The notes: generated by a model not told the origin, from the sequence alone. DNA of 64,000 nt from a phage (GCA_029742005.1 GCA_029742005.1_4113.1); one strand, 5' to 3'. Counted from the first letter of the stretch, positions 46,410-62,799 are shown. A program made the numbers and translations.

Positions 46410-46478
46410 ATTTCCTCCTTATTCATTATACTATATTTAATACAAATAAGAATGCCAGTATCAAGTACTGGCATTATG

Positions 46479-47588
46479 TTATTTTGGTAAATCAATTTTA
46501 GTAAAGACTGCAACATCCTCGATTGCACCTGGAATGGCGTAATACGATCCAGTACTATACACATCTCCATTTTTGGTTAATATCGATGTCAAACCATCAC
46601 TAAAAAGAACATCCCTAATCTCACTAACTTCAACGGGTAATTGTAAATTGGTAGCACTATATATAGCACCAGTTTGAGAATTGTTTAATCCCAAACCACG
46701 GTTCGCCCCAACACCCTTCTGATATGTACTAGTAATTACCATTTGTGTAGCAGTATTTAAGGCAGGTGAATTCGTCATAAACAACGGAGAACTATTAGGC
46801 AAAGTACTTACAGGAACGGCACGGAATGTAGTCGTGCCTGAACTAAGAAAGTTTGGAGTTTGACCACATACGAAATATGATGTACCATTATAGTAATTGA
46901 ATGCATTACCACCAATGGCTGCATCGATTACACCAGAACTACGCAATCCCCAAGTGTTAATTTGTGTTTGGTTCCCCGTACCATGCTGTCCACTACTATT
47001 CCATCCAGAACTATATAGCTTATTATCTAATGTAAGATACATACTATCATTCGCATTGGTCATTACTTTACGAACGTTCGTAGCACATTGAGTTAATGTG
47101 TAAATTGATGAGGAACCAATACCCAAAGAACCACGATATCCATTATCTCCTGCACCATAGAGTACTGAATTAGTGCTAAGTACAAATATTAAACCATTTG
47201 TACATACAATATTAGCAATTTCACTTACTGGTATAGCATTGGTAAACCAATTAGTCCTTTCAACTAATACAGTACTGTAAGAAGTAGTTGTAGAAGATGA
47301 GAACCAGTACGTTTGACCTGATGTCCATATCGTATTATCATTTTTAATAATAACAAGTGTACGATCACCCACGAAAAAATTAGAAACATCTGCACTTACT
47401 AATATCCATGAAGATACCGTGTTGGTATTACCATTTCCAGATTCACCACCTTGATTTCTACCTATGTAATATAAATCATGTGAATCAGTCAATAAGAATT
47501 GACCTTGTGTAGAAGCACCAACTTTAATTATATTTTTAGGACCAGGTACAATATTTCCGTACTTAACCATTCTTGCAAAAGGTAACAT
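46479..47588 (-). CDS. RCC1-like beta-propeller repeat protein, array member 3
   Basis: N-terminus MLPFARMVKYGN; C-terminus FTKIDLPK. Confidence 0.7.
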   Translation of the reverse strand: MLPFARMVKYGNIVPGPKNIIKVGASTQGQFLLTDSHDLYYIGRNQGGESGNGNTNTVSSWILVSADVSNFFVGDRTLVIIKNDNTIWTSGQTYWFSSSTTTSYSTVLVERTNWFTNAIPVSEIANIVCTNGLIFVLSTNSVLYGAGDNGYRGSLGIGSSSIYTLTQCATNVRKVMTNANDSMYLTLDNKLYSSGWNSSGQHGTGNQTQINTWGLRSSGVIDAAIGGNAFNYYNGTSYFVCGQTPNFLSSGTTTFRAVPVSTLPNSSPLFMTNSPALNTATQMVITSTYQKGVGANRGLGLNNSQTGAIYSATNLQLPVEVSEIRDVLFSDGLTSILTKNGDVYSTGSYYAIPGAIEDVAVFTKIDLPK

Positions 47589-47598
47589 AATTCTCTCC

Positions 47599-48729
47599 TT
47601 AATTTAATAATGCCCCTGGCAAATCCACTTTGACGAATTGTGCATATGCTGAGGAATTTTGATCAAAGTTTGGTCCCAATCCATAAAATGAGCTAATGCC
47701 GTCTTCATTTGTGTATATGATATAAACGTTCTTTACATCATTTCCGCATATAAATCGAATGTCTTTCGTTTGTGTTCCCGCTGGAACATTACGAAGGTTC
47801 ACAACGCCATTACTTGCATTGTTATCAGCCGACGCAATTGGTAATTGATTTTGACCATATTGACCACGCATATTTTTTGCATCTAAACCAAACACAGTAT
47901 TTGATACCGCACCAACTTTCAAAAATGAACCAAAACTATTATTGAATGACTTTGGAAATGTACCACTATAAACACTTCTCCCATCTGATAATACCGCTGA
48001 ACTGAATTTCCCGTTATTCGATATGGCAAATTCATTGTAAGGAAGTGTACCCATTTTGGTATATACAGAATATGAATTAGTGGAAGTATTATCAATAATC
48101 TTATTACCATTATATCCAATACCATACTGGTATCCGTCTGCATCTTGAACTATACACAAAGGACCACTTGGGGTTTGTGTCAACGAAACAACACGTTCAA
48201 CTTGTATATCACCAAATGTATTTCTTCGCCATGTTCTATCTATTATAGTACTAGTATTACCCAAAGATAATTCCACACTATATAATAGATTGTTTTCAGT
48301 AAAAATGGCAACATAATATGCGTGGTTAATAACTTGCTTCATCCCAGCATCAATAACTTCCTGTGGAATATGATCAGTAACATCCAACCAATCAAGGTTA
48401 GATGATGCAATATCTGGAGTACTGAATTTGTCAAATCTAGTTGAGCCACAAACTAGCACTCTATCATCATTTGTCAAAGCCACTGTGCTAGTCTGCATAT
48501 TAGAACTGAATGATTTAACATTACTAATGTTAGACTTGTACCAACCCTTATCAGCAGCACCCACCGTGAATCCGGTTCCCATTGATCCACTTGTACTTGT
48601 ACCATAAGCCCACATCTCACCACTATATGTTAGTGCCATACAGTGGCTTCCATTTGCTTGGAAATCCTTTATACCAGTGGGAGCAACCACTGTATTCCCA
48701 TAATCAAACATTCTAACAAAAGGTAACAT
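47599..48729 (-). CDS. RCC1-like beta-propeller repeat protein, array member 4
   Basis: Start at MLPFVRMFDYGN; C-terminus FVKVDLPG. Confidence 0.7.
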   Translation of the reverse strand: MLPFVRMFDYGNTVVAPTGIKDFQANGSHCMALTYSGEMWAYGTSTSGSMGTGFTVGAADKGWYKSNISNVKSFSSNMQTSTVALTNDDRVLVCGSTRFDKFSTPDIASSNLDWLDVTDHIPQEVIDAGMKQVINHAYYVAIFTENNLLYSVELSLGNTSTIIDRTWRRNTFGDIQVERVVSLTQTPSGPLCIVQDADGYQYGIGYNGNKIIDNTSTNSYSVYTKMGTLPYNEFAISNNGKFSSAVLSDGRSVYSGTFPKSFNNSFGSFLKVGAVSNTVFGLDAKNMRGQYGQNQLPIASADNNASNGVVNLRNVPAGTQTKDIRFICGNDVKNVYIIYTNEDGISSFYGLGPNFDQNSSAYAQFVKVDLPGALLN

Positions 48730-48804
48730 AACTAAAATCTCCATATAATAATTATAATGTATTTACAAAAAAATACCAGTACATATTTCAGTACTGGCAT
48801 TTTG

Positions 48805-49932
48805 TTAAAATGGTAAATCTATTTGTTTAGTAAATGTCATACTTAGTGGTATTGAACACATTGACGCATTTCTCCCATTTAAATTGGACGGAGGCTGTCC
48901 GTTCATCCATATATTGGTATCGTCGTAAAAAGTACTCCACCACGTAGAACCTTCCGTATGAAGATTAATATTAAAATCAGGGAATTGACATTCTTGAAAA
49001 ACATCAAAAAACGGGATAGATGATACACTACTACCAGTAAATGGAGTGTAGCCTGTTGACATTAATTTATTAGTATCCGAATTTACCAAAAAGATAACAG
49101 AACCAGTATTGAATGGTGAATATTTTGGATACAAATTACTCATATCACCGATAGTGAAGTTGATATCAAATATTTTACTATGCTTACCAGTTCCTGAAAG
49201 TGTAGTACCAGTTACATATATTTTATTATCAGTTGTTCCCATGACAAACCCAATTCCAAATCCCACACAAAATGTTATGTCATATGGTATATTATCAAAG
49301 AGTGGGACAAACGTTGTGGCATCACCAGTAGTAGCTTTTATTTGATAGCTATTATTTGCCCCAGCACCCCAAACAGTACCATTTGATTTCACTTTGAATA
49401 TACTATCTCCTATGTAGTGACCGTATATACTATCAACTTCAGTATCAAGTTTTGTCCATTGTGATACAAAGTTTTTATGCCCTAAACCTAAACAACCATT
49501 GCGGTTTAGTCCCCTGCCGTATAGTGTACCATCATTCATCAGTACAAATGTTGTGTATCCACAAAGCATTTTTTTGATTTGTGTAACATCAATACCAGCA
49601 AAAAAACCACTCCAATCAGTATATCCTTGTTGGATTGCGTTTGATTTGGTGAATGACATAGTTGGTCCTGAACCATATATTTTACCATCTTTTATAATCA
49701 CTGAATAAGAACCTAACCATACATCTTGAACATTCTCACTAATTGTTTTCAATTCACCATATGCAGAGAATGGAGTACTTTGCCCTGCACTATATGATGA
49801 ATCTTCACCGTGTGCATATAATGTTCCATTTTCTGTTAGAATCATTTCCAAATATACACAATTGACAATTTTCTTTATTTTATTAACTTCTATTTTATTT
49901 CCGTACGCTAACATCCTTGCAAAAGGTAACAT
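48805..49932 (-). CDS. RCC1-like beta-propeller repeat protein, array member 5
   Basis: Start at MLPFARMLAYGN; C-terminus FTKQIDLPF. Confidence 0.7.
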   Translation of the reverse strand: MLPFARMLAYGNKIEVNKIKKIVNCVYLEMILTENGTLYAHGEDSSYSAGQSTPFSAYGELKTISENVQDVWLGSYSVIIKDGKIYGSGPTMSFTKSNAIQQGYTDWSGFFAGIDVTQIKKMLCGYTTFVLMNDGTLYGRGLNRNGCLGLGHKNFVSQWTKLDTEVDSIYGHYIGDSIFKVKSNGTVWGAGANNSYQIKATTGDATTFVPLFDNIPYDITFCVGFGIGFVMGTTDNKIYVTGTTLSGTGKHSKIFDINFTIGDMSNLYPKYSPFNTGSVIFLVNSDTNKLMSTGYTPFTGSSVSSIPFFDVFQECQFPDFNINLHTEGSTWWSTFYDDTNIWMNGQPPSNLNGRNASMCSIPLSMTFTKQIDLPF

Positions 49933-50007
49933 AACTAAAATCTCCATATAATAATTATAATGTATTTACAAAAAAATACCAGCACATATTTCAGTACTGG
50001 TATAATG

Positions 50008-51180
50008 TTATGGTAAAATAATAGCTTGTAACGAACTCATACCCAATGTTGGAACACTCGCCTGTGGTGCTGGTGCATTCACTTTTGGTGATGAAACCGC
50101 ATAAGTCATTCCTGTACCCAAATCTGGATCAAAAACTACAGAACAATAATCCCCATTGTATATAAGTCCATTAGTATATCCTTGTACACTTTGAATGCAT
50201 TTCGTGAACGTACCAATGTCAGTAGTGGCATTTATTAAGTTCCTCCCACGGTAGCCACATGTGTATATGAAATTATCATCACCTATGTACATACTCGCAT
50301 TCCCAGAAGAACTACATAGATAAGACATATAAGCACGCATGTTTTTAGGAGCAACTGACAATGTACCAGCATAGAATTTATTATTCATACCCGAAATATC
50401 ACCATCACCCAAAGCACCAAAACTCCCCCAACCAGTACCATAATATCTCTTATCACTCAAGAATATAATACAGTTGTTATTACACATCTTGACTTGATAT
50501 ATCAATGAAGGATCAACCCCAGGGAATGATTCAGTGTATGTTAGAACAGCCAGATCAGTACTGGCATTACATTGATGATATGTATTAGTACCAGCGGACA
50601 ATATTGTACCATCAACTAATAGAATCCTCGAAGTGCCAGTACCAGCAATACAAGCAACAGCATTACCTGTATATATTTTTCTGAAAGTAAAGAAACCAAC
50701 AGTCTTACTCCCCTGTCCACTCCAACCAGTATTATCAACACCACATGCCCATACTGAACCATCTTGCATGATCATCATTACACCATAGCGTTCTATCGAA
50801 ATATAGACAATCTTCGTAGTATCAACTGCACTAAATCTAGAAGTTATATCAGTCCAAACCTTTACACTCACCGCCGTCGCACCGAAAGTAGGATCTTCCC
50901 CTGCTATCATTATCCTACCATTGTTAGTCAGATACATTGTCTGACTATAACCAGTACTACAAAACTTAACACTATCAGTCTCTGGAACTTTTAACCACTC
51001 GTTGTAACGTGTTACGTTAGTGTTATTATCTAACTGATAATAGTTATTCATCCCAGATACATATAACACACCATCCTTTATTAAACTATAAGTCGCACTA
51101 TAGTCACTACAGGTATAACGTGTACCCACAGGTCGCTCAACGACGTTCCCATATTCTAACATCCTTACAAAAGGCAACAT
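50008..51180 (-). CDS. RCC1-like beta-propeller repeat protein, array member 6
   Basis: Start at MLPFVRMLEYGN. Confidence 0.7.
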   Translation of the reverse strand: MLPFVRMLEYGNVVERPVGTRYTCSDYSATYSLIKDGVLYVSGMNNYYQLDNNTNVTRYNEWLKVPETDSVKFCSTGYSQTMYLTNNGRIMIAGEDPTFGATAVSVKVWTDITSRFSAVDTTKIVYISIERYGVMMIMQDGSVWACGVDNTGWSGQGSKTVGFFTFRKIYTGNAVACIAGTGTSRILLVDGTILSAGTNTYHQCNASTDLAVLTYTESFPGVDPSLIYQVKMCNNNCIIFLSDKRYYGTGWGSFGALGDGDISGMNNKFYAGTLSVAPKNMRAYMSYLCSSSGNASMYIGDDNFIYTCGYRGRNLINATTDIGTFTKCIQSVQGYTNGLIYNGDYCSVVFDPDLGTGMTYAVSSPKVNAPAPQASVPTLGMSSLQAIILP

Positions 51181-51221
51181 AACTAAATACCAGAACATAT
51201 TTCAGTACTGGTATCGTAGCG

Positions 51222-52364
51222 TTAAAATGGCATCTTAACCTCTTTATATACTAATATATCACCGGATAAACCAGGAAACGCAGAACCATTACCACATGCA
51301 TATATAGTACTGTCATTCCACGCCGCTTGATGGTAATTACCTATAGTACATTTATAATTCGATAAATCAGTCACACCAGGTGTTAGTACATAATATACTG
51401 GTCCACTAGGTAAATTAAAATCAAATCTACCAAAGTAGTTCAAACCAGATGAATAGGACTTGTCATTAGCAAATATTACAGTACCATCTTCTGTAAAAGA
51501 ACTGTGAGAAATGTCTTTGAGATTGTTCACAACACCAGACGGTATTGATGTATTCAACGTAAAGGACGTCAATGGTGCTGCACTCGGTGTGTTGTTCGCC
51601 GTGTAACCATAATATGCATAACCAGCTACATATACACTCGAATCTGAACAAAATAAAAATGCACTCCTATAACCCAACCTAATACTCTCTATAGTCTTAC
51701 TAAAAGTAACTTTAGTAAAGGTAGGAACTAAACCACTATATCCTACCCCACATGTACCAAAATCATTCTTCCCAGTACTGTACAATTCGTTATTATTTGT
51801 AAGGTAAAATGACGCAGCAGCACCGCTATCTAAAGTACTGTAAACGTCTTTTACATTACTCGCAATCAATTTAAATGCACTCAATACGGTAGCCGAACCA
51901 TTGTTAGACAGCGTTGTTGAATCCGTGCCTTGTCCTATTGTATATAAATCTCCAGTACTAGTCAAAACAAATATACCATTAGTCGCCATAACAATTCTGT
52001 CATTCTTTAAATTAAATGAACTAAAAAGTGTACTTATATCAGTAAAGGTAGTATAACGCCCACTCTGCCCTATACTCGATAAATTCCCACTCAAATAAAC
52101 CTTATTATCATTACCAACAGCTACATAACAACCCCACCCAGCATATATCTGATCAATGCCTTGTATCGGTATTTGTAACCATTCACTACCAGTTACCGAA
52201 GCAGTACTTCCAGTTCCAAGTTCACCAGAGTTATTAGCTCCGAATACATATAAATTCCCACTATCCGATAAAACAACTGTATTACCAACTCCAGTTTTTA
52301 TATCCTTGATACCATTCTTAGGAGCAACATTCCCATAATCAAACATTCTAACAAAAGGTAACAT
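51222..52364 (-). CDS. RCC1-like beta-propeller repeat protein, array member 7
   Basis: N-terminus MLPFVRMFDYGN; C-terminus YKEVKMPF. Confidence 0.7.
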   Translation of the reverse strand: MLPFVRMFDYGNVAPKNGIKDIKTGVGNTVVLSDSGNLYVFGANNSGELGTGSTASVTGSEWLQIPIQGIDQIYAGWGCYVAVGNDNKVYLSGNLSSIGQSGRYTTFTDISTLFSSFNLKNDRIVMATNGIFVLTSTGDLYTIGQGTDSTTLSNNGSATVLSAFKLIASNVKDVYSTLDSGAAASFYLTNNNELYSTGKNDFGTCGVGYSGLVPTFTKVTFSKTIESIRLGYRSAFLFCSDSSVYVAGYAYYGYTANNTPSAAPLTSFTLNTSIPSGVVNNLKDISHSSFTEDGTVIFANDKSYSSGLNYFGRFDFNLPSGPVYYVLTPGVTDLSNYKCTIGNYHQAAWNDSTIYACGNGSAFPGLSGDILVYKEVKMPF

Positions 52365-52436
52365 ATTTCCCTCCTTTATTCATTATACTATATTTAATCA
52401 AAAATAAAAGCCAGTACTTGAGTACTGGCATAGTAT

Positions 52437-53564
52437 TCAAAAAGGTAAATCAATTTGCTTAGTAATAATAGTATCTAACGGTATTGAACACAATGAGAAA
52501 TTCTTTCCACCCGTATTTTCAGGATTATATCCATTCATCCATACATTATTACCTTCGTAAAATGTATTCCAGTATAAAGCCCCACTATATCGTGTATTCG
52601 AATTGAACGATGGAAAGTTGAATTCTTGGAATGATGTAAAATATGGAATGGAACTTGAACTACTTCCCGTAAATGGGGTATACCCAGTTGCTATTAGTTT
52701 GTTTGTATCTGCATTAATTAAAAATACAACACTAGTCGAATAGTCCAACGAATCAGGATGATATATATTACTCATATCACCTATAGTAAAACCAACATCA
52801 AAAACTTTACTATGTGCACCACTACCAGCAAAAGTAGTTCCAGTTGCATATATTTTATTATCAGATGTTATCATTACAAAACCAACACCAGAAACAAAAC
52901 TGCATTTTATATCATAAGATATATCATCAAACAACGGAACAAATGTGGTTGCATCACCCGATGTTGCTTTAACTTGAAAGCTGTTATTTGAACCTGAACC
53001 ATATACAGTTCCATCGTTTTTAATCTTAAACAATGTATCGCCAAGGTAACCGCCAAATATATTATCCACATTAGTGTCAAGTACAGTCCACGCTGAAACA
53101 TAATTTTTATGTCCTAAACCTAATGCACCACTTCGATTCCATCCTCTTCCATAAAGTGTTCCGTCTTTCATTAATATAAATGCTGTATAACCACATAACA
53201 TTTTTTTAATTTGGGTAACATCTATACCAGTGAAATACACAGCCCAGTCAGTATATCCTTGTTGGAAAGTATCAGAATTCGTGAATGCATATGTTGGACC
53301 TGAACCATATATTTTATCACCTTTAATAACAACGGAAAACAATCCTAACCATAAGTCATCAACTTCAGTTGTGATTTGTTGAACTGCTCCTAACGATACA
53401 AACTTTGTACTTAAACCCGCATTATAGTTTGAATCTTCACCGTGTGCATATACAGTGCCATCTTGCATTAGAAACATTTCAAGAGTGCCACTAACAACAC
53501 TTTTCTTTATATTATTAACTTCGATTATATTCCCATAATCAAACATTCTAACAAAAGGTAACAT
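52437..53564 (-). CDS. RCC1-like beta-propeller repeat protein, array member 8 (close paralog of member 5)
   Basis: N-terminus MLPFVRMFDYGN; C-terminus ITKQIDLPF. Confidence 0.7.
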   Translation of the reverse strand: MLPFVRMFDYGNIIEVNNIKKSVVSGTLEMFLMQDGTVYAHGEDSNYNAGLSTKFVSLGAVQQITTEVDDLWLGLFSVVIKGDKIYGSGPTYAFTNSDTFQQGYTDWAVYFTGIDVTQIKKMLCGYTAFILMKDGTLYGRGWNRSGALGLGHKNYVSAWTVLDTNVDNIFGGYLGDTLFKIKNDGTVYGSGSNNSFQVKATSGDATTFVPLFDDISYDIKCSFVSGVGFVMITSDNKIYATGTTFAGSGAHSKVFDVGFTIGDMSNIYHPDSLDYSTSVVFLINADTNKLIATGYTPFTGSSSSSIPYFTSFQEFNFPSFNSNTRYSGALYWNTFYEGNNVWMNGYNPENTGGKNFSLCSIPLDTIITKQIDLPF

Positions 53565-53636
53565 AATTCCCTCCTTTATTCATTATACTTTATTTAATAC
53601 AAATAAGAATTCCTGTATCGAGTACTGGCATTCAAT

Positions 53637-54785
53637 TTATTGTAAAAAGGACATATCTACTTCTGTATAACTAAGAATGTTTTGACCAGCAATTCCACCC
53701 ATTACTACTATTGCATACCCACAATAATATAATTTCCCAGTGTCCGTAAGTATAAGTGAACCAGAAGGTGTTCTTACCAAATTACACGAACTATTAAAAG
53801 AAGTATACGAAGGAGTATAGGAGTACTGATTAATATTATTACCAACACCTAATTGACCACCCCTATTCGAACCAGATGCATAAAGTACTTCATCTGCTTT
53901 GACAATATGTGATGCCATGTTAGCAACACATGCATATACACCATATACCCCTGTACTCAATAATGTAGGAGTCTTGTATTGAATATCAGTACTAGTAGAT
54001 GTTCCACCTGTGCCAAATTCATTACCATATTGTGCTCCGTACTGCTTCCCACATGCGTACAAATTATTATCCGATTTGATAAAAAATGTACTCTGATAAC
54101 TTACATCAAAATCTATAACATCCGAAGAAATCATCGTTACCCCAGTAATCGAAGTTTGATTACCAGTACCCAACTGGTAGTAATAGTTAAAACCACAACC
54201 CCATAAAGTATTATCTTCTTTTAGGTATATGTTACCAACTGCCTTTTTAACCGAAGTTATAGTATCTACCCTTTTGAATGTGTTAAAAGAATTAATGTTT
54301 GTACCATCACCAAATGATGATAGGTTCGAGTTATTGTTAACTCCACAACAATACAACGTACCATCGTTTGTTATCAAATTCACCTTCATATCATTAAAAC
54401 TACTCATGTATTTTATATCAGAAACATTAATACCACCTGATGTTATCCATGTAGTACAGTCCGTCCATAACGTCTTCCTATCAGTTACCCCAGTAAATGC
54501 CTTCGTGTTACCAGTGATAAACACTTTACCAGTACCCTTTTCTTCATACAATTGACAATCACTACTGTTATCTTCCAATAAAACCCTCTGTACATTCTCT
54601 GCACAAAGAATAAATTTACTCGATGCTACACCTGTTCCAGTACCCCAATTCGTCGCAGAAGATGCATACAACTTATGTGTTAGTGTATCATGCAAATACA
54701 TAGAACCACTAGAATATATTTTAAAACGCCCAGAGTTGGTAGGTGCTTCATTCCCATAATCAAACATTCTAACAAAAGGTAACAT
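53637..54785 (-). CDS. RCC1-like beta-propeller repeat protein, array member 9
   Basis: Start at MLPFVRMFDYGN; C-terminus YTEVDMSF. Confidence 0.7.
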   Translation of the reverse strand: MLPFVRMFDYGNEAPTNSGRFKIYSSGSMYLHDTLTHKLYASSATNWGTGTGVASSKFILCAENVQRVLLEDNSSDCQLYEEKGTGKVFITGNTKAFTGVTDRKTLWTDCTTWITSGGINVSDIKYMSSFNDMKVNLITNDGTLYCCGVNNNSNLSSFGDGTNINSFNTFKRVDTITSVKKAVGNIYLKEDNTLWGCGFNYYYQLGTGNQTSITGVTMISSDVIDFDVSYQSTFFIKSDNNLYACGKQYGAQYGNEFGTGGTSTSTDIQYKTPTLLSTGVYGVYACVANMASHIVKADEVLYASGSNRGGQLGVGNNINQYSYTPSYTSFNSSCNLVRTPSGSLILTDTGKLYYCGYAIVVMGGIAGQNILSYTEVDMSFLQ

Positions 54786-54827
54786 ATTTCCTCCTTTATT
54801 CATTATATCATATTTACCCCATAACCC

Positions 54828-54856
54828 TTGACATCCTTTCAGTACTGGTGTACTAT
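54828..54856 (+). promoter_or_regulatory. sigma-70-like promoter at strand-switch, driving the plus-strand small-gene array
   Basis: TTGACATCCTTTCAGTACTGGTGTACTAT. Confidence 0.5.
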
Positions 54857-54881
54857 AGAAGGAATATAAGGAGAACTACAC

Positions 54882-55109
54882 ATGACAGCTACACTTAAGT
54901 ACTACATTAATACTCTAAATGAACTAGAGTACGGTAAGTTTCTCGCGGATTGTTCGTGGCTAATAGAGCTAAAAACACATAACAGTACTGGATGTAACCT
55001 TATGCTGAACAATGCACTTGATACCCTTGTAGTGAGTATTTTACACAGCAACATCTGCGGGAATAGCAATAAACAATTATCAAAAATCTTAGTACTGGTA
55101 GCTATATGA
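54882..55109 (+). CDS. small hypothetical protein, first gene of small-paralog array
   Basis: ORF track; AAGGAGAA RBS. Confidence 0.5.
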   Translation: MTATLKYYINTLNELEYGKFLADCSWLIELKTHNSTGCNLMLNNALDTLVVSILHSNICGNSNKQLSKILVLVAI

Positions 55110-55318
55110 ACACTATGAACATTAAACAGTACTACATCGATGCACTACCAACAAAAGGTCTACGAGAAAGCCTACTGTATACACAAAATAATTTTATACA
55201 CTACAAACGTTATCCTAAACTCCTGAACTCGTACAGGAATAATAACATAAGAAATGCTTTACAAGGGGTAGAAAGTATGCAATACTATTACATCCTTACC
55301 CTTTTAATCGAGTACTAA
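55106..55318 (+). CDS. small paralog-array protein (YY-N-term, LLIEY C-term)
   Basis: ORF track; coupled start. Confidence 0.5.
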   Translation: MNTMNIKQYYIDALPTKGLRESLLYTQNNFIHYKRYPKLLNSYRNNNIRNALQGVESMQYYYILTLLIEY

Positions 55319-55319
55319 T

Positions 55320-55505
55320 ATGTATAAAGAATTCTACTGTAGTAAGCTGCACAAGCAATACCGAGATTCATTCCCCAATGAACCTATGGACATGAATAGT
55401 CCATTTTATAAATTTGACTTCAGACTGGAGACACGTTATGCAATAGAACATCAATTTCCTGAAACTAAGTACTTATCTATCATGAACCTCATCTTTAAGT
55501 TCTAA
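55320..55505 (+). CDS. small paralog-array protein
   Basis: ORF track. Confidence 0.5.
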   Translation: MYKEFYCSKLHKQYRDSFPNEPMDMNSPFYKFDFRLETRYAIEHQFPETKYLSIMNLIFKF

Positions 55506-55516
55506 AAGAGTACTAT

Positions 55517-55729
55517 ATGAAAACTATGAACATTCATCAGTACTACTTAGATATTCTCCCTAAAGATGTGCAGAACATCCTTAAACAAGAATTCAGTACT
55601 TTAAAAAACCTTAAAAGATCCGCACCGAATGTACTCATCCTGCACCAAATAAATGTAGTTGATAATATTCTACAAGGTGTACCAGGAACCGAGTACTTTA
55701 ATATAGTAAGGCTAATTACATTACAATGA
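55517..55729 (+). CDS. small paralog-array protein
   Basis: ORF track; similar to 55106..55318. Confidence 0.5.
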   Translation: MKTMNIHQYYLDILPKDVQNILKQEFSTLKNLKRSAPNVLILHQINVVDNILQGVPGTEYFNIVRLITLQ

Positions 55730-55911
55730 ATCATATAAGCTACTATTACCAAAAACTATCCGACCGAGACAAGTACAGCCACAACTCCCATGTATGGTAC
55801 TACAAACGCGGTAGTATAAGGGACAAACAACATTACTTCTGTACTGCTATAAAAGAAAAACTAACAACTAAGTACACGTACAGAGCAGTACTGAAACTTA
55901 TTGATATGTAA
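55726..55911 (+). CDS. small paralog-array protein
   Basis: C-terminus KYTYRAVLKLIDM. Confidence 0.5.
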   Translation: MNHISYYYQKLSDRDKYSHNSHVWYYKRGSIRDKQHYFCTAIKEKLTTKYTYRAVLKLIDM

Positions 55912-55921
55912 AGAGAATACT

Positions 55922-56107
55922 ATGAATACATTTGAGTACTATACAAATAAACTATCTATGCCAGAAAGATCTCATCTCTATGTGTGGAGAAATGCGTATA
56001 AAAGCGGCAATAAACTTATACAAAGAAATTCCCTTACAGTGTGTACAAATTTAATTAAAGCAGAGTACCGCACATATATTGAAGTACTGAAACTAATCTC
56101 TATCTAA
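55922..56107 (+). CDS. small paralog-array protein
   Basis: Internal ATG (MNTFEYY); C-terminus YIEVLKLISI. Confidence 0.5.
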   Translation: MNTFEYYTNKLSMPERSHLYVWRNAYKSGNKLIQRNSLTVCTNLIKAEYRTYIEVLKLISI

Positions 56108-56115
56108 GGTACTCT

Positions 56116-56295
56116 ATGCAAGAATTCTATATCTATAAACTTCAGCACAAAGATAGATACAACTATAATAAATTCCAAAGGTACTACACAGTCGGGAACA
56201 AAAGAGATAAAAAACGATACTTTCTATCATGTACAGTAGAAGCACAAAACGAAAAGTACACGTACAGAGAAGTACTGAAACTCATCTCAATCTAA
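56116..56295 (+). CDS. small paralog-array protein (59 aa)
   Basis: Manually read ORF below track cutoff; C-terminus KYTYREVLKLISI. Confidence 0.45.
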   Translation: MQEFYIYKLQHKDRYNYNKFQRYYTVGNKRDKKRYFLSCTVEAQNEKYTYREVLKLISI

Positions 56296-56303
56296 GGAAT
56301 AAT

Positions 56304-56483
56304 ATGCAAGAATACTATATAGAACACATAAGCATTAAAGACCGTTTCATGTACGACACCTTCGTGAAGTACTACAACCTGGCAACTAACAGTACTAAAA
56401 ATATTAATCTCAATAGCTGCATTCATCAGGCACTAACAAAAGATAATCCCTTCAGGGAAATCCTCGCTCTCGCATCTGTATAA
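56304..56483 (+). CDS. small paralog-array protein
   Basis: Internal ATG (MQEYYIEH) after AAGGAA RBS. Confidence 0.5.
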   Translation: MQEYYIEHISIKDRFMYDTFVKYYNLATNSTKNINLNSCIHQALTKDNPFREILALASV

Positions 56484-56494
56484 AGGAATCTAAT

Positions 56495-57154
56495 ATGAAA
56501 CTTAATGCACACAGTAAACAATACCTTAAGCACTTTAAGTACCTCAACAGTATTCAAGCAGAATCTTTTACACCAACATATACTTACGACCCGTGTGTAC
56601 TAAAGAAACGAAATAAAAAGAAAAAATCCAGAAATGTTCTCGTATCTAAGAACCTCAAATCGTACTTGAAGAAAAATAATATAGCTCTTGCTTTTATTAA
56701 TATCTATAATACTGATTTAAAAGTATTGAGTACTAATACCAGCACAAAAGCACTAAAGAATGCATCTATCTATATACACATGGATAATATCCCGTGTACT
56801 ATAATTCTATCTTTCGGGAATGTATACTTCTTCGGGAATTGTAATAGCACCCATGATATCAGTACTGCACAATTCCAAATCGGCGATATGTACTGCATGG
56901 GTTCAGAAAAAATACACGATAACATGCACTTCTTCCAAAAGCAACGTACTAACGAAACTGATACAGTACTGCAATTCCTCAAAGAATTACAAGGCAAAGA
57001 ATTATCAGAAGAAGATCTATTCATGTACAGTACTGTAATCGATAATCCAGAACTCTATAAAAACGCGTACAATCTAACAAAACATGTACAGGAACTTATC
57101 AGTACTGATAAGAAATTTCATCACCTCATTACGTATATTTCAAACTATGTATAA
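56495..57154 (+). CDS. hypothetical protein (219 aa) embedded in small-paralog array
   Basis: ORF track; AAAGGAA RBS. Confidence 0.55.
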   Translation: MKLNAHSKQYLKHFKYLNSIQAESFTPTYTYDPCVLKKRNKKKKSRNVLVSKNLKSYLKKNNIALAFINIYNTDLKVLSTNTSTKALKNASIYIHMDNIPCTIILSFGNVYFFGNCNSTHDISTAQFQIGDMYCMGSEKIHDNMHFFQKQRTNETDTVLQFLKELQGKELSEEDLFMYSTVIDNPELYKNAYNLTKHVQELISTDKKFHHLITYISNYV

Positions 57155-57329
57155 AGAATACTACAAAGATAAAATCCCAATGCATCTACAACACCATATA
57201 CCAAACGTTGCATTGGGTATCAAAGATCACGCAAAGATAATGTTCCAACAATGTACTAAGTACACGCTCATATACGATGATAATCCATATATGCTGTACT
57301 ACGTAGTAATGCTAACATTCAGGTACTAA
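57147..57329 (+). CDS. small paralog-array protein
   Basis: Internal ATG (MYKEYYKDK) overlapping previous stop; C-terminus VVMLTFRY. Confidence 0.5.
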   Translation: MYKEYYKDKIPMHLQHHIPNVALGIKDHAKIMFQQCTKYTLIYDDNPYMLYYVVMLTFRY

Positions 57330-57330
57330 T

Positions 57331-57510
57331 ATGAATACTTATAAAGAATTCTACCTCTCGTACCTTAATTCCGATATAGTAACATCCAATACATTCAGTA
57401 CTAAAATTATCTATAATGAATTAATGAAAGAATGTATTAACGGTGCTATTAACCCTAAAGATACGTATGACTTGTACTATGCAGTACTAACCCTTGTTTT
57501 CACGAAATAA
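57331..57510 (+). CDS. small paralog-array protein (59 aa)
   Basis: Manually read ORF below track cutoff (MNTYKEFY...); TAATATG junction. Confidence 0.45.
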   Translation: MNTYKEFYLSYLNSDIVTSNTFSTKIIYNELMKECINGAINPKDTYDLYYAVLTLVFTK

Positions 57511-57518
57511 CACATAAT

Positions 57519-57710
57519 ATGAATAACCACAAAGAATACTACATAGAGAAACTCCCAATGTATCTCCAACACCTTGTACCAACAGAACCATTGGGTATAG
57601 AAAAAAACTACGAAAAAGACTACTTCATTCAGTGCACTAAATCCTCGATATATATTGAAGACTATAATCGAGTACTGTATCACATCCTTTTACTAATATA
57701 TAGGTACTAA
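57519..57710 (+). CDS. small paralog-array protein
   Basis: MNNHKEYYIEKLP ... LLLIYRY. Confidence 0.5.
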   Translation: MNNHKEYYIEKLPMYLQHLVPTEPLGIEKNYEKDYFIQCTKSSIYIEDYNRVLYHILLLIYRY

Positions 57711-57711
57711 T

Positions 57712-57894
57712 ATGCACAAAGAATACTACACACAATTTCTCCCCAGCATTTTTGAACACTACGCCAGATACAAAGTCCCTATGGATAACGATTTGGCAGT
57801 ACTGGGATTCAATAACTGCATAGAACGAAGTATAGAAAATAGTAGTAGTTATGACCAGCTATATAACACTATCCTACTTATATTCAGGTACTAA
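57712..57894 (+). CDS. small paralog-array protein
   Basis: MHKEYYTQFLP ... ILLIFRY. Confidence 0.5.
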   Translation: MHKEYYTQFLPSIFEHYARYKVPMDNDLAVLGFNNCIERSIENSSSYDQLYNTILLIFRY

Positions 57895-57895
57895 T

Positions 57896-58081
57896 ATGCA
57901 TAAAGAATACTACACACAATTTGTTAAAGGGAACTACAAACATGCCGTACCCAGAACCCCTTTAAATTCTCATGACCCAAGTACTATATTCTTGTTTAAT
58001 GACGCAATACGTACAGTACTCAATACTAAAGATGAAGATGTGCAGTACGTATTCTTACTATTACTTATATACAGACACTAA
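57896..58081 (+). CDS. small paralog-array protein
   Basis: Internal ATG (MHKEYYTQFVKG); C-terminus LLLLIYRH. Confidence 0.5.
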   Translation: MHKEYYTQFVKGNYKHAVPRTPLNSHDPSTIFLFNDAIRTVLNTKDEDVQYVFLLLLIYRH

Positions 58082-58086
58082 CTAAT

Positions 58087-58296
58087 ATGAATAAAGAACA
58101 TAAAGAATTCTACTCCAAATACATAAGCCCCTCAGAACAAATGTTTCTAAGGACTACTCCACCTTTAAGTACTAATACATTTTTCGGCAGAGTATGCTAC
58201 AATAATTGTATTCAAATGACTTTAAACGCAAACGAAGATGGTAACAGTACTAACCTGTACTCAGGTATCATAGGTATACTATTCCTGTATGAATAA
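58087..58296 (+). CDS. small paralog-array protein
   Basis: MNKEHKEFYSKY ... Confidence 0.5.
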   Translation: MNKEHKEFYSKYISPSEQMFLRTTPPLSTNTFFGRVCYNNCIQMTLNANEDGNSTNLYSGIIGILFLYE

Positions 58297-58477
58297 TTAC
58301 AAAGACTTCTATTTGAATACACTACCTACTGTACTTTCTCTAAGTGCTCAATGTAAAATCCCGCTGGATAATGCTTACGCCAGATATAGCTATTCCATAA
58401 CTGTTAATCGATGTATAGAGAATCATTGCAGTACTAACCAGTACTATAACATAATCCTACTTATATTCAGGTACTAA
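58289..58477 (+). CDS. small paralog-array protein
   Basis: MNNYKDFYLNTLP ... ILLIFRY. Confidence 0.5.
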   Translation: MNNYKDFYLNTLPTVLSLSAQCKIPLDNAYARYSYSITVNRCIENHCSTNQYYNIILLIFRY

Positions 58478-58478
58478 T

Positions 58479-58625
58479 ATGAATAAAGAACATAAAGAAT
58501 TCTATATACGAAAACTAACATTCGTCCCCGTAAGAATATATAAAGAATGCGACCCAAGATTATACCTATGGCACTTCAATGAGTGCATAAAAGATTCTAT
58601 ATACCATAAGAACTATAAAGAATAA
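58479..58625 (+). CDS. small paralog-array protein, short variant (48 aa)
   Basis: Manually read ORF (MNKEHKEFYIRKL...); may be a truncated copy. Confidence 0.35.
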   Translation: MNKEHKEFYIRKLTFVPVRIYKECDPRLYLWHFNECIKDSIYHKNYKE

Positions 58626-58676
58626 TTGTGCTCAGTACTAACACTAGTACTATCATATTAATTAATAGAGAATACT

Positions 58677-58868
58677 ATGTATAAAAACTTCTATATAAGT
58701 AAACTAAAAGAAAATGAACAAGTATGGATTAGATCTATAATTCCACTGGCATTTAATAGATATGCATTTAACAGATGTACCGAGATTGCTATAGACCCTT
58801 ATAATATTAAAGAGAATGTACAGTATAATCAGTACTACTATATCTTAATGCTTATATATAGAAAGTAA
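58677..58868 (+). CDS. small paralog-array protein, last member
   Basis: MYKNFYISKL ... ILMLIYRK. Confidence 0.5.
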   Translation: MYKNFYISKLKENEQVWIRSIIPLAFNRYAFNRCTEIAIDPYNIKENVQYNQYYYILMLIYRK

Positions 58869-59506
58869 TTAAACACAAGTAGACAGGGGAAGCTCCTAGT
58901 GAACAACCTTTATGTACAGGCGAATTGTTAAAATTCAGCCTGGACAAATGCGATCACTAGGATTCTCCCCAGGCTAAACCCCGTAATCATAGGTAGTCAT
59001 AAGTAATCATATATAAACATTTATATGAGCACCGTAGAATCACAGAATGATTATATATGATTCAGTACTGATTAGTATAGACAAGATTGCTCAAGAATGC
59101 ACGGAAATGTGTGTGAATGATTCAGTACTGATATCCCACTAAGTAGGCAGAGGAAGTCTGCCGTACTTTTTAGTTTCCAAGCTCCTTTTCCATTTTTCAA
59201 ATTACATCAAATGTAATCAAAAGTAATCACGCAATGATTAGTACTGAATTATTACTTTCACCTTAATTTCAATGACCCCTTTACCCTTCGGGGTAAAATT
59301 CCATTACCCCTTGAGGCTCCAGCAAAAAGTTGGTTAGTACTCCATCCTAAATCTCGATCCTAAAAATTTTGGAGTACCTATGAAATAAAAGTTGGATCTT
59401 CGAAAGTTGAAATTTACGTTGGGACGTTTATGATTTGTGGGATATAATGATGTTTGTAGTCGGGTAGTTCTCAAGAATATCAGTACTGAATAATGAAAGA
59501 AAGCTA

Positions 59507-59533
59507 TTGACATTATGATTCAGTACTGTATAA
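59507..59533 (+). promoter_or_regulatory. sigma-70-like promoter inside the ORF-free region
   Basis: TTGACATTATGATTCAGTACTGTATAAT; no ORF downstream. Confidence 0.5.
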
Positions 59534-59920
59534 TGTTCTACATAGCTTCAAGGGGTGATGAGTTGCTGCGAACAATTCATTTACTCTACCTCCTGTCGTG
59601 AGACAGTACAGAAAAGATAGTTCCTCCTGTGGTGGTACATCTTTTTGAACCTCATATGAAAATCGTAATAACAGTACTGATATTAACAGAATGGTGTCAG
59701 TACTGATTTTAATCTAAAGCATTATGCCACCAGCACAAGCTGGTGGATTCCCTCTAACAGTATTCAGTACTACATGATAGTCTTCATCCTCCTAGGGTAA
59801 CATAGTGAGGGCTATGATGGCAGTACTGAATACTCCCTTTCAAAAGATAGATCTATGGTATAGTACTGACGGATTTTGGGCGTAGTTACCCTGGATGGAT
59901 TTTGGACGTAGATATGTCTA

Positions 59921-60060
59921 GCCCTCCAGAAGTCTGGAAGTAAAGATGGCTATCCATCTAGACGGCTAAACGGCTAGATTTCTGGATGGCTGGATGGCTA
60001 GACGTTTGGACGGCTAAACGGCTAGATGGTTACACGTCTGGAAGTATAGACGGCTAAATC
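59921..60060. repeat. cluster of short direct repeats (iteron-like)
   Basis: GACGGCTAAACGGCTAGAT x2, GTCTGGAAGTA x2, multiple GGATGGCT copies. Confidence 0.6.
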
Positions 60061-60220
60061 AAAATTTTATTTTGTTTTTTCCAATAGTTCCCCTACCGCG
60101 TGGGGATAGTTTCCCCGCAGTATCTGGAGTTAGATTTTTCTGAATCTGGAATCATTATCTTATAAACTGGGGGCAATGTCAACCGCCTGGACGGATATTT
60201 TTAAAAATTTTTTCAGTACT

Positions 60221-60295
60221 GAATTTTGGGCGTAACTATGCACCCGGTGGGCTATAGTCTTTCTCGACTTGATGGAACTATTATACAGTACTGAA
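60221..60295. repeat. ~70-bp repeated element, copy 1
   Basis: GAATTTTGGGCGTAACTATGCACCCGGTGGG...; related copies at 60436 and 63774. Confidence 0.5.
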
Positions 60296-60435
60296 AAAAT
60301 AAAGCAATACCCTGGAAGCAAAAAAGTTTTAATTAATTTGCTTGCCATCCTGGGCCGTACTATGGTACTATATTTCAGTACTGAGAAAGTGCGTTTACCT
60401 GCTAGGGTGCGGGAGTGTATCCTTTTTTTATATCT

Positions 60436-60505
60436 TGAATTTTGGGCGTAATTCCGCACCCTCTGGGGTTTCCGCTTTCTCGCGTCTATGTAGTAATTAT
60501 ACGCT
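60436..60505. repeat. ~70-bp repeated element, copy 2
   Basis: GAATTTTGGGCGTAATTCCGCACCCTCTGGGG...TAGTAATTATACGC. Confidence 0.5.
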
Positions 60506-60816
60506 TTTTCAGGATCAAGTCAATACCTAAAAACAAAATAATTGAAAATAATTTAACGCGTTTAAACGGCCCGTAACGCCCTGGAATGATTGGAATGGTG
60601 CAAATGTATAGCTTAGGTGTATTAATGCGTTAGAATGCGTCTGAGGCCGTTTTACGGGGTATGGGGATGATTTAGTGGATTGATTCAGTACTGAATGATA
60701 GTACTACTATATAGAAAGATAGTTCCCCTGGATGGTTGCAGTACTGAATGATAGTACTGAATAATAGTTCCCCTATATAGAAAGAAAACTATTTTAAAAG
60801 TATTTGTAGAAAGTAC

Positions 60817-60876
60817 TTGCAAACTATGTTTAACGGCGTATAATGTTTTACATCGAGAGCGGGAACACTTCCCGCT
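60817..60876 (+). promoter_or_regulatory. class C cassette: sigma-70-like promoter plus GC-rich leader hairpin
   Basis: TTGCAA-N16-TATAAT then hairpin GCGGGAAC...TTCCCGC. Confidence 0.6.
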
Positions 60877-60899
60877 ACACTTTAAGAGAGATTAATACG

Positions 60900-61262
60900 A
60901 TGGCGACTCAAATCACTAAAATCATGCTTAACCTGGTAAACTTCCGCGATGAGATGAAAGGTCTTCCGGCTGAAACTGTAAAAATTCACATTGCAGCTTA
61001 TCGGGAACTTATTGCAATGTTGCCGCTTAAGCGTGAACAATACGCCGCTACTTTGATGCTTGATTCAATGATCCATATAATGATCTCAAATGATTTAACG
61101 ATGGTTTATCAGTATATGGGTGAATTGTTCGCGGTGTATAGTAAACCAGTACCAGGAATGGAAAGTACAGAAGTATTACACGGTTTAAATTTAAAACAAG
61201 ATGCATGGGATAATATGCCTCGTTTCCTGGTATGGGCTGACAGTGGCAAGATTTACGAATAA
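60900..61262 (+). CDS. hypothetical protein
   Basis: Internal ATG (MATQITKIM) downstream of leader hairpin. Confidence 0.55.
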   Translation: MATQITKIMLNLVNFRDEMKGLPAETVKIHIAAYRELIAMLPLKREQYAATLMLDSMIHIMISNDLTMVYQYMGELFAVYSKPVPGMESTEVLHGLNLKQDAWDNMPRFLVWADSGKIYE

Positions 61263-61276
61263 GTTTTAGAAAGTAC

Positions 61277-61335
61277 TTGCAAACTAAGTTTAAAAGCGTA
61301 TAATGTTTTACATCAGGTGGGGAATAGTTCCCCAC
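61277..61335 (+). promoter_or_regulatory. class C cassette: promoter plus leader hairpin
   Basis: TTGCAA-N16-TATAAT then GTGGGGAA-TAG-TTCCCCAC. Confidence 0.6.
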
Positions 61336-61355
61336 TATATAAGAGGATTAAAAAA

Positions 61356-61595
61356 ATGGCTAAATCAAAAATGTTCTTGGGTCACAAAAACAAAACTCAT
61401 TGGAATGTAAGCCTTTGGATTAATAACGATGAGTCATTGTACCGGTTGGCCCAGGACTTTATTGCCGCCAATACTAATCGCAATGATGCGGCCCGTCATA
61501 TGATGTTATTTTTAGAACAGACTGGACAATATAAAACACCGGACGGATTCAAATATAGCACTACTGCGATCCGTGCGGCGATGGTTGGAATGTAA
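61356..61595 (+). CDS. hypothetical protein
   Basis: ATG after AGAGGA RBS (MAKSKMFLG). Confidence 0.55.
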   Translation: MAKSKMFLGHKNKTHWNVSLWINNDESLYRLAQDFIAANTNRNDAARHMMLFLEQTGQYKTPDGFKYSTTAIRAAMVGM

Positions 61596-61680
61596 TAGAA
61601 TTTATTTAAAGTACTATCGCAAAAAATGATAGTACTTTATAATAGTGTTTTATTCATACACCAACGATAAGGGCAACAGC

Positions 61681-61947
61681 ATGAATATTAAGTATTTTGC
61701 GACGCGTGAACAAGCTCGGATCGCCGCACGCCAGGACGGGGCAACGTTTAAAGATATGGGCGTACAATCGGAACGTGGTAAACGTTGGGCCATTATAAAG
61801 CGTAGTACCGCCAGATCATTACAGTACTGGCTATCTGCTTTAAAGCGTCCTGATAGTGTATCGCGTCGCGTGGTAGAAATAAAGCACGACCGCAAGGGCA
61901 ACCGCGTTACTGTGTACAGTACTAAAAAGATAGCAGTACTTGAATAA
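61681..61947 (+). CDS. hypothetical basic protein
   Basis: ATG after AAGGGCAA (MNIKYFATREQ). Confidence 0.5.
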   Translation: MNIKYFATREQARIAARQDGATFKDMGVQSERGKRWAIIKRSTARSLQYWLSALKRPDSVSRRVVEIKHDRKGNRVTVYSTKKIAVLE

Positions 61948-61953
61948 AAGTAC

Positions 61954-62022
61954 TTGCATACTATGTTTAAAGGCGTATAATGTTTTACATCAGGACGGGG
62001 AACGAAATAAGTAACTTCCCGT
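61954..62022 (+). promoter_or_regulatory. class C cassette: promoter plus leader hairpin
   Basis: TTGCAT-N16-TATAAT then ACGGGGAAC...CTTCCCGT. Confidence 0.55.
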
Positions 62023-62071
62023 TAAGTAGCCCAGGAGTAAGGCACACGAAAAACTCCCCTGATAAAATAGT

Positions 62072-62099
62072 TTGACAAATGTTTTTAAAAGCGTATAAT
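62072..62099 (+). promoter_or_regulatory. sigma-70-like promoter
   Basis: TTGACA-N16-TATAAT upstream of ORF 62132. Confidence 0.55.
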
Positions 62100-62131
62100 A
62101 CTTACATCAACTACTGAATGAGGGTTACAAA

Positions 62132-62743
62132 ATGAAAACTATCACTACTACTACTTTCGTTATGGCTTTTTCTGAATTGAACGCAGAACAACAAACGTCA
62201 GCTATCGAACTGGTTCGGGATCGGGAACGTTCAAGCGGTGATGATTTCTTTTCTGAGTCAGTGATCGAGTACTATAAAGAAACAGTACTACCAGAATATG
62301 GAATTGATGACGCTGATTTGCAATTCAGTGGTTTTTGGTCGCAGGGTGACGGTGCATCAATCAGTACTGACCACGTTGACGCAGTGAAGTTTTTACGCAA
62401 GATTAAAGCATTAACTAAGTATCGTTCTATCCGTCACCTGCTGAATGAAGATGATTTGGCGATGAGTGTAAAGCGTTCTCACTCCCACTACTCGCATGAA
62501 AACACTGTAAGCGGGTACATTGAATCGGGGTACACTGATTTAACCGCAAAACAAGAAACGTTAGTTAATGAGCTTGAGGAACTACTCACTGAAACTATTC
62601 GTGAATTATCCCGCAAGTTGTACCGTGATTTAGAGAATGCATATGAGGATCAATTCACTACTGAAAACATTACGGCACTGATTGAGGGTAACGAATATCA
62701 ATTCAATGTTATTGATGGCGTAGTAGAATCTATCGAATATTAA
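62132..62743 (+). CDS. hypothetical acidic protein (203 aa)
   Basis: ORF track; GAGGG RBS. Confidence 0.6.
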   Translation: MKTITTTTFVMAFSELNAEQQTSAIELVRDRERSSGDDFFSESVIEYYKETVLPEYGIDDADLQFSGFWSQGDGASISTDHVDAVKFLRKIKALTKYRSIRHLLNEDDLAMSVKRSHSHYSHENTVSGYIESGYTDLTAKQETLVNELEELLTETIRELSRKLYRDLENAYEDQFTTENITALIEGNEYQFNVIDGVVESIEY

Positions 62744-62799
62744 TTCAGTACTGAATCAATGGCGGGAGTGGTTCCCGCCTATAACCAGGAGTAAGCATC

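Follow-up and report, generated by a model that had tools for sequence, protein, structure and literature searches.

Positions 54882-58868 (+ strand) of a 64,000-nt stretch of phage DNA (GCA_029742005.1; the whole stretch is called the window below) hold 18 consecutive genes, 17 of them small and one encoding 219 amino acids (aa). With slightly better than even confidence, we read this locus as one polycistronic operon encoding lineage-restricted, soluble helical proteins of ~60 residues, present in 16 copies that fall into three subfamilies, together with a further small gene, g01, and an unrelated 219-aa protein. Their likeliest role, which we hold with less assurance than the reading as a whole, would be that of a repertoire of small binding proteins acting inside the infected cell. 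Annotations in the relatives examined call the genes hypothetical, and two PHROG families cover part of the locus, PHROG 11711 for subfamily C and PHROG 29152 for the 219-aa protein; we found no description in the literature of the family, its three subfamilies, the mosaic of its repertoire or the proposed junction-cassette mechanism.

A family of small paralogous genes

Sixteen of the small genes could be assigned to one family, with subfamilies A (g02 and g04), B (g05-g08) and C (g03 and g10-g18). Within subfamilies, BLASTP E-values were as low as 4e-18, and subfamily hidden Markov models (HMMs) recovered their own members at E 1e-16 to 1e-43, as against E>0.01 for 900 composition-matched shuffled controls. 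Comparison of ten-phage profiles with hhalign aligned A with C and B with C over their full length of 54-60 columns (probability 87%, E 3.8e-6), and because of these two links the 16 genes are treated as a single family; the direct link between A and B is weaker (E 7.5e-4). The best profile link of g01 is to subfamily A and is weak (E 1.5e-3, probability 17%), and matches of the profile search to g01-like proteins are circular, g01 having been part of the query; its membership of the family is not demonstrable. The 219-aa protein was unrelated to the small family in the hhalign comparison. Since paralogs share only 22-45% identity, the duplications that separate them are old. The alignment confirmed the conserved ends and variable middles, and the motifs, that a preliminary description of this DNA had given, with M..KE[YF]Y...L at the N-terminus and ILLLIYRY or VLKLISI at the C-terminus.

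The window matches the 121Q/PBECO4 group of jumbo coliphages (Asteriusvirus). Megablast with positions 54500-59500 retrieved 37 phage records, all from Escherichia or Salmonella jumbo phages of 320-386 kb, with identity mostly 90-95% and at least 80% query coverage in 15 of the 37. The counterpart in 121Q comprises genes 249-265, every one annotated "hypothetical protein", flanked by opposite-strand RCC1-like genes on one side and by ~2 kb without an annotated gene on the other. Gene models in the window were built from an open reading frame (ORF) listing and from inspection of starts and Shine-Dalgarno (SD) sequences, where every candidate start codon was examined with its upstream sequence and a family-type N-terminus was used to pick the start. 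With starts chosen in this way the small genes span 59-75 aa, apart from the truncated g17 of 48 aa, whereas ORF calls of 84, 81, 76 and 68 aa were rejected as longest-start artefacts beginning at spurious upstream starts. The tandem array of tightly coupled paralogs described earlier, with a single embedded 219-aa gene, was thereby borne out, but its extent had been drawn too widely: of the ~18 paralogous genes of 48-84 aa, 17 are small and 16 related, the sizes of 76-84 aa were over-extended and the 48-aa gene is a truncated copy. A search of the rest of the window in every frame found no additional family member. Opposite-strand coding, hinted at by the negative GC skew, was rejected, the minus-strand ORFs being short and overlapping and the substitutions tracking the + strand frames. 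The composition of the array is atypical for + strand genes, with a third-position GC skew of -0.31, no enrichment of first-position G (-0.03 vs +0.33 elsewhere) and a third-position G+C content (GC3) of 0.37 vs 0.24 elsewhere; the + strand is C-rich across the whole 42-59 kb block, whichever way the genes point.

All 18 genes lie on the + strand. The operon begins with g01 (54882..55109, 75 aa), its first gene in every phage. Subfamily A comprises g02 (55106..55318, 70 aa, ortholog type A) and g04 (55517..55729, 70 aa, type E). Subfamily B comprises g05 (55726..55911, 61 aa, type G), g06 (55922..56107, 61 aa, type H, start shifted from TTG at 55901 to ATG at 55922), g07 (56116..56295, 59 aa, type L) and g08 (56304..56483, 59 aa, type M, start shifted from 56229 to 56304). 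Between the B block and the C block, its position in every case, sits the embedded 219-aa gene g09L (56495..57154). Subfamily C consists of g03 (55320..55505, 61 aa, type C), g10 (57147..57329, 60 aa, type P, overlapping the stop of g09L by 8 nt), g11 (57331..57510, 59 aa, type Q), g12 (57519..57710, 63 aa, type S), g13 (57712..57894, 60 aa, type T), g14 (57896..58081, 61 aa, type W, start shifted from 57851 to 57896), g15 (58087..58296, 69 aa, type Y), g16 (58289..58477, 62 aa, type Z), g17 (58479..58625, 48 aa, type a) and the last gene of the array, g18 (58677..58868, 63 aa, type c).

The genes are tightly packed. Among the 17 junctions, the TAATATG type (1-nt spacer) that the preliminary description had taken as characteristic is found at five, while four are overlaps (ATGA or 8 nt), seven have spacers of 5-11 nt and one is 51 nt long. 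This sole long junction follows g17 and exists because a CAA>TAA nonsense mutation at 58623-58625 shortened that gene, removing its C-terminal helix; measured from the untruncated ancestral stop, near 58661, it is 15 nt. The orthologs of g17 in 121Q, JP4 and SD-15 read through to 60 aa, as do eight of the nine copies in the ortholog group, so that among these nine the mutation is specific to the source phage. At many junctions an SD-like AGGT or GAG lies 6-8 nt before the ATG and is supplied by the sense codons with which the upstream gene ends (..AGG TAC TAA T ATG).

A profile search of 5.8 billion proteins returned 52 clusters, none with a Pfam domain, of which the named ones all belong to Escherichia or Salmonella phages of this group and the others are metagenome sequences. 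An exhaustive HMMER scan of 1.84 billion representatives returned only 29 clusters, all of 41-69 aa, and no family member was present in the loci examined of the Yersinia Eneladusvirus fHe-Yen9-04 (by the RCC1 array and at the genome start, 23 kb). By these searches the family is confined to this array and this phage group. PHROG 11711 (function unknown) was matched end to end by g12 (E 6e-28), g13 (E 2e-24), g18 (E 7e-24), g03 (E 2e-15) and g15 (E 5e-9), whereas g01, g02, g05 and g07, when tested against PHROG, gave no match; PHROG 11711 covers subfamily C only, the members of subfamilies A and B that were tested lying outside it, as does g01. The protein encoded by g09L matches PHROG 29152 (function unknown) at E 1e-113, with homologs restricted to this phage group, and AlphaFold2 with 22 homologs gave no usable model of it (predicted local distance difference test, pLDDT, 37).

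Coding constraint and exchange of units at gene junctions

In order to assess constraint, the array was extracted from nine relatives (121Q, BF17, JP4, PBECO4, SD-15_S21, slurp01, G17, phAPEC6 and A4), giving ten phages with the source, and clustering of their 170 members at ≥70% identity gave 29 ortholog types. Members of a type hardly differ in ORF length, and substitutions at the three codon positions number 1085/934/1819, with an excess at the third. The pooled ratio of nonsynonymous to synonymous rates (dN/dS, omega) was 0.35, falling to 0.03-0.15 in several types, with 0.25 for the N-terminal, 0.39 for the middle and 0.29 for the C-terminal segment; the values for g01, whose ten orthologs are 65-93% identical, and for the 219-aa gene were 0.48 and 0.46. 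The adjoining RCC1-like gene was dropped as a dN/dS benchmark, since the paralog in that position differs from phage to phage. By these measures the array genes are real coding genes under purifying selection, and the conservation as coding sequence in related phages, on which the preliminary description had made its case depend, holds across the ten phages. Some ortholog groups (K, S and W) have dN/dS of 0.7-1.1, and the high omega of type S goes together with the chimerism documented for that type. At the level of orthologs, positive selection acting on the variable middle was rejected, with an omega of 0.39 there and no segment above 1.

Copy number varies from 14 to 21 per phage among these ten phages, which are ~90-95% identical in DNA. 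The repertoire is drawn from at least 29 types in collinear order and differs by whole units that are present or absent; six types occur in all ten phages. These comparisons show the array as a mosaic in which old, conserved types of paralog keep a fixed order. Of the "rapid duplication and diversification" proposed earlier, the rapid part stands for the turnover of whole units, whereas the paralogs are old, the orthologs conserved and no segment exceeds a dN/dS of 1. Metagenome contigs show the matching architecture of RCC1-like genes, small array and 219-aa gene.

Pairwise BLASTN gave blocks that, where they flank an indel, share 29-57 nt of the window; the segment 57866-57920, for example, aligns to the T/U as well as to the V/W junction of JP4, a phage with two extra units there. 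The module shared at such sites runs from the 3' codons of one gene, which include its stop and an SD-like AGGT or GAG, across a short spacer into the next gene, of which it takes in the first ~9 codons. Modules can be nearly identical between paralogs: the 3' ends of g13 and g16 share 94% identity over 33 nt, g13 and g14 open with 27 nt that match at 26 positions, and g15 and g17 do not differ in their opening 26 nt. The average identity of gene middles, 35%, is at the background level expected from this composition. Two chimeras have crossovers that fall in the conserved 5' block, namely the metagenomic P0014, in which the junction and the opening ~20 codons are of type S and the body is of type P, and gp542c of phAPEC6, in which a type P start leads into a type S body. 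Breakpoint overlaps, near-identical modules and chimeras together indicate that the array changes its units through in-register homologous recombination, which adds or removes them at the junction cassettes, and that the modules are homogenised at the DNA level. The "conserved ends" are then at least partly a DNA-level feature, where recombination keeps a homology that overlaps the ribosome-binding signal of the downstream gene. Conserved termini in small paralogs can thus stem from DNA homogenisation and overlapping translation signals, besides protein function.

Operon context, predicted fold and proposed role

A sigma70-type promoter, TTGACA-N17-TACTAT, was found by consensus scan (10/12) at 54828..54856 (+), and its spacer contains a CAGTACTG palindrome. 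Across nine phages neither hexamer changes, while the spacer differs at three positions, and the Shine-Dalgarno sequence TAAGGAG read at 54867..54873 (+), upstream of g01, is likewise invariant in the nine. Consensus scans inside the array gave no promoter-like site at ≥10/12 and no + strand terminator-like site, which fits a single transcription unit; the first terminator-like hairpin with a T-run past the array, at 59146..59162 (+), is a candidate for the operon end. Codons ending in C for Tyr, Asn, His, Phe, Asp and Ile make up 48% in the array vs 28% in the rest of the window, resembling the promoter-cassette genes downstream. The virion list of phAPEC6 (62 proteins) is without any annotated array gene (gp540c-548c), though a protein of 4.7 kDa was detected (PMC7247149). 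From the invariant sigma70-type promoter, the lack of internal promoters and terminators, the absence from the phAPEC6 virion proteome and the host-like codon choice, we infer one early, non-structural and efficiently translated operon.

AlphaFold2 was applied to g12 with an alignment of 51 sequences and gave an all-helical model (pLDDT 85, predicted template modelling score 0.72) with helices at residues 3-10, 14-17, 30-45 and 49-61 and a pLDDT of 81-92 over the first 20 residues; the predicted fold is a small helical bundle. No transmembrane segment was found, the longest uncharged hydrophobic run being 12 residues, which sets the proteins apart from small membrane proteins of the holin, spanin or exclusion type. 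The grand average of hydropathicity is negative in all 16 family members and positive (+0.33) in g01 alone. The family proteins are rich in Tyr (up to 16%) and have isoelectric points (pI) of 5.0-9.6. A Pfam scan of g01, g09L and eight family members gave sub-threshold noise only, PADLOC gave nothing meaningful, the best hit of a sequence-profile search of the PDB had an E-value of 0.17, and Foldseek against BFVD returned the family members themselves only.

In the proposed mechanism, host sigma70 RNA polymerase would transcribe the operon early from the promoter at 54828-54856, translation would proceed by coupling and from the embedded SD-like sites, and the products would be non-structural accessory proteins. 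The conserved aromatic and hydrophobic terminal helices may form the core of a small bundle, and the variable middle may give each paralog its own binding partner, in host takeover, anti-defence or competition between phages. In the related phage CBB, RpoD-like promoters cluster before short hypothetical genes that were interpreted as early host-takeover genes (PMC5259590), and RNA-seq of PA5oct revealed an early class of uncharacterised genes and 32 putative promoters of TTGAC/TATAATA type around transcription start sites genome-wide (PMC7318152). A host-takeover or anti-defence role may be proposed for the array and is consistent with its invariant promoter, its absence from virions and the early-gene pattern of these two phages.

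Several points weigh against this interpretation. The promoter is a consensus match only, and its invariance discriminates only mildly, as the intergenic region is 92% conserved. The absence from phAPEC6 virions applies to the annotated genes, since about half of the array genes of that phage are annotated and only those were in the mass spectrometry search space. A literature search found no Asteriusvirus RNA-seq, and early timing and translation of the locus rest on inference. The role of the conserved termini as a protein core depends on a single AlphaFold2 model, the searches of Pfam, PDB, Foldseek and PADLOC gave no fold or sequence similarity to a characterised host-takeover or anti-defence protein, and the orthologs are without a signal of positive selection, which speaks against a classical arms-race surface.

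Clusters of early host-takeover genes such as those of CBB and PA5oct are like the array in having short, lineage-specific genes behind sigma70-type promoters that are non-structural and variable; they consist mostly of unrelated genes with their own promoters, whereas the array is one family of 14-21 copies in a single coupled operon with one promoter. The host-takeover module of SPO1 and the early ORFs of T4 and T5 are similar clusters of small genes. Operons of anti-CRISPR (Acr) and anti-defence genes likewise contain small genes with fast turnover that are absent from virions, but the array members are paralogous to one another, unlike those of typical Acr loci. In the Pfam scan no helix-turn-helix (Aca-like) regulator appeared among the scanned operon proteins, and there was no sequence or fold match in the PDB, so the array does not have the make-up of an Acr-Aca locus. 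In the MGF110/360 families of African swine fever virus (ASFV) and the "genomic accordions" of poxviruses, the copy number of tandem paralogs changes by unequal recombination and yields strain-specific repertoires. The array shares with these multigene families the tandem paralogs and the repertoires that vary by recombination of units, and differs in belonging to a bacteriophage, in its 60-aa units and its junction cassette of 29-57 nt, and in showing no sign of recent amplification under selection.

A more specific form of the proposal, which we consider improbable, is a cassette-type effector repertoire, where each ~60-aa unit would neutralise a different host defence or a variant target, and where the module of 3' end, SD, stop, start and 5' end would serve as a recombination cassette by which phages infecting one cell could exchange, gain or lose units in register with translation unbroken. 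If this holds, the array would be what antigenic-variation or integron-like cassette systems are elsewhere, in a phage, and would rank with the largest tandem arrays of a single family known there. Independently of the cassette proposal, should the units be host-directed effectors, the mosaic of presence and absence over the ~37 sequenced relatives would offer a ready genotype-to-host-range map in which to look for their targets. Among the hundreds of unannotated small genes that jumbo phages carry, this array is a tractable case, with one family, at least 29 types, a model of a helical bundle and a mechanism of unit exchange, and relatives of the source phage are under development for therapy against pathogenic E. 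coli and Salmonella.

The array might instead be largely dispensable baggage, with units that persist and turn over since junction cassettes recombine readily. Such an origin would account for 14-21 copies among phages so similar in DNA, for the toleration of the nonsense-truncated g17 in the source phage and for the dN/dS of 0.7-1.1 in groups K, S and W; it fits poorly with the pooled dN/dS of 0.35 and the values of 0.03-0.15 in several types, with the ORF lengths kept in ten phages and the six types shared by all ten, with the coincidence of the high omega of type S with chimerism, and with a codon choice shifted toward host-preferred C-ending codons, and we regard it as slightly less probable still than the effector cassettes. 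A little behind it, and likewise doubtful, comes the possibility that the array supplies the neighbouring RCC1-like virion proteins with partners, such as assembly chaperones, adaptors or regulators. The RCC1-like block (43204-54803, - strand) holds ten tandem genes of 239-396 aa, nine being 369-396 aa, and diverges with the small array from one 78-bp intergenic region; its genes are annotated as "regulator of chromosome condensation" in 121Q and other relatives, and metagenome homologs match Pfam WD40_RLD/RCC1. Adjacency of the two paralog arrays is kept in every phage and metagenome contig examined, both vary between phages, and eight RCC1-like proteins are virion-associated in phAPEC6 (PMC7247149). 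An obligatory link is weakened by Yersinia phage fHe-Yen9-04, which has an RCC1-like array and no small-family member in the 23 kb examined; furthermore, the small-gene operon differs from the RCC1 genes in its sigma70-type promoter and its host-like codon choice, and no small array protein is among the phAPEC6 virion proteins.

Two further explanations assign the proteins a particular site of action. The internal protein (IP) locus of T4 encodes polymorphic small proteins that share the N-terminal capsid-targeting sequence MKTYQEFIAE, and an anti-defence role is known for T4 IPI*. By analogy, the N-terminus of the array proteins would be a capsid-targeting sequence, and the proteins would be packaged in the capsid and injected with the DNA to disarm defences. 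The N-terminus of g11, MNTYKEFY, resembles the T4 sequence, and the phages belong to the T4 superfamily, where polymorphic small proteins with a shared N-terminal motif are encoded by the IP locus, and possess a prohead protease (gp227c in phAPEC6). We nevertheless judge this very unlikely: the annotated array proteins are missing from the 62 virion proteins of phAPEC6 despite the detection of a protein as small as 4.7 kDa, the residues that follow the KE[YF]Y motif include no conserved Leu/Ile-x-Glu protease site, the C-terminus is conserved to an equal degree and the N-terminal helix is modelled with confidence, and the promoter is of sigma70 type and not of the late TATAAATA type. Least probable of all, in our estimation, is that these are small nucleic-acid-binding proteins, for instance regulators acting on the (C)AGTACT(G) palindrome, whose core AGTACT peaks in density at 54-62 kb and occurs in the operon's own promoter spacer. 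Subfamily B and several other members have a strongly basic character, with a pI of 9.2-9.6 and a net charge of +4 to +7; across the family as a whole, however, charge is not conserved, no DNA-binding fold was recognised in Pfam or fold searches, and the Yersinia phage loci carry the motif at higher excess without the family.

The AGTACT palindrome and the neighbouring region

AGTACT occurs 236 times in the window vs 21 expected (~11-fold), and CAGTACTG 63 times vs 0.9 expected (~70-fold); CAGTAC, GTACTG and AGTACT are the three most over-represented hexamers of the window. The motif is found in all three frames, is twofold denser in non-coding DNA and is densest at 54000-62000, within the array and immediately past it. 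It is favoured by synonymous choice, with V-L written as GTA-CTN in 75 cases vs 32 expected, S-T as AGT-ACT in 80 vs 25 expected, and Tyr between ..AG and T.. as TAC in 38 of 41 cases. AGTACT sites are retained in relatives above other hexamers (0.75-0.93 vs 0.48-0.75), and in two loci (23 kb) of a phage from a different genus, Yersinia phage fHe-Yen9-04, the motif exceeds expectation 14-19-fold. It resembles the iterated palindromes of HIP1 type in cyanobacteria. Literature searches found no report of the AGTACT motif, which could be a protein binding site, a modification target or a self-marker and may be of broader interest than the array itself.

Strong promoters of the form TTGAC(A/T)-N8-TTCAGTACTG(A)-TATAAT, where the palindrome abuts the -10 element, recur at 1719, 2198, 2970, 20496, 24809, 36190, 59507 and 63412 on the + strand and at 63846 on the - strand. 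AGTACT is present in five of the 11 perfect (12/12) sigma70 matches, and the array promoter at 54828 is a looser version. This arrangement suggests that the palindrome is an operator-like element in a class of early promoters.

Downstream of the array, 58869-60850 comprises ~2 kb without a credible ORF, which is unannotated also in 121Q, PBECO4, slurp01, phAPEC6 and A4. It is packed with GATTCAGTACTGA repeats, iterons of GGCTAAACGGCTAGA type (~59930-60060), TTTTGGGCGTA repeats (59873, 60226 and 60437) and hairpins, and has strong promoters on both strands (59507, 12/12; 60523 and 60182 on the minus strand, 11/12). An Rfam scan of 54-64 kb gave no match. The region may act as an origin or in packaging, form a terminus, or contain genes for non-coding RNAs. 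Beyond it, at 60800-62750, three near-identical promoter cassettes AAGTACTTGCA[A/T]ACTA[T/A]GTTTAA..GCGTATAATGTTTTACATC and a related fourth at 62072 (TTGACAAATGTTTTTAAAAGCGTATAAT) each precede a G+C-rich leader hairpin and then a small gene (60901-61262, 61357-61596, 61682-61946 and 62132-62743). G+C and GC3 are here above those of the rest of the window, and the cassettes look like classic early-gene units. At the other end of the window, ARAGORN identified a tRNA-Ser with anticodon ACT at 3901-3992, besides tRNA-Ser with anticodons GCT and TGA; this unusual anticodon would read AGT, the first half of the frame-0 AGTACT motif.

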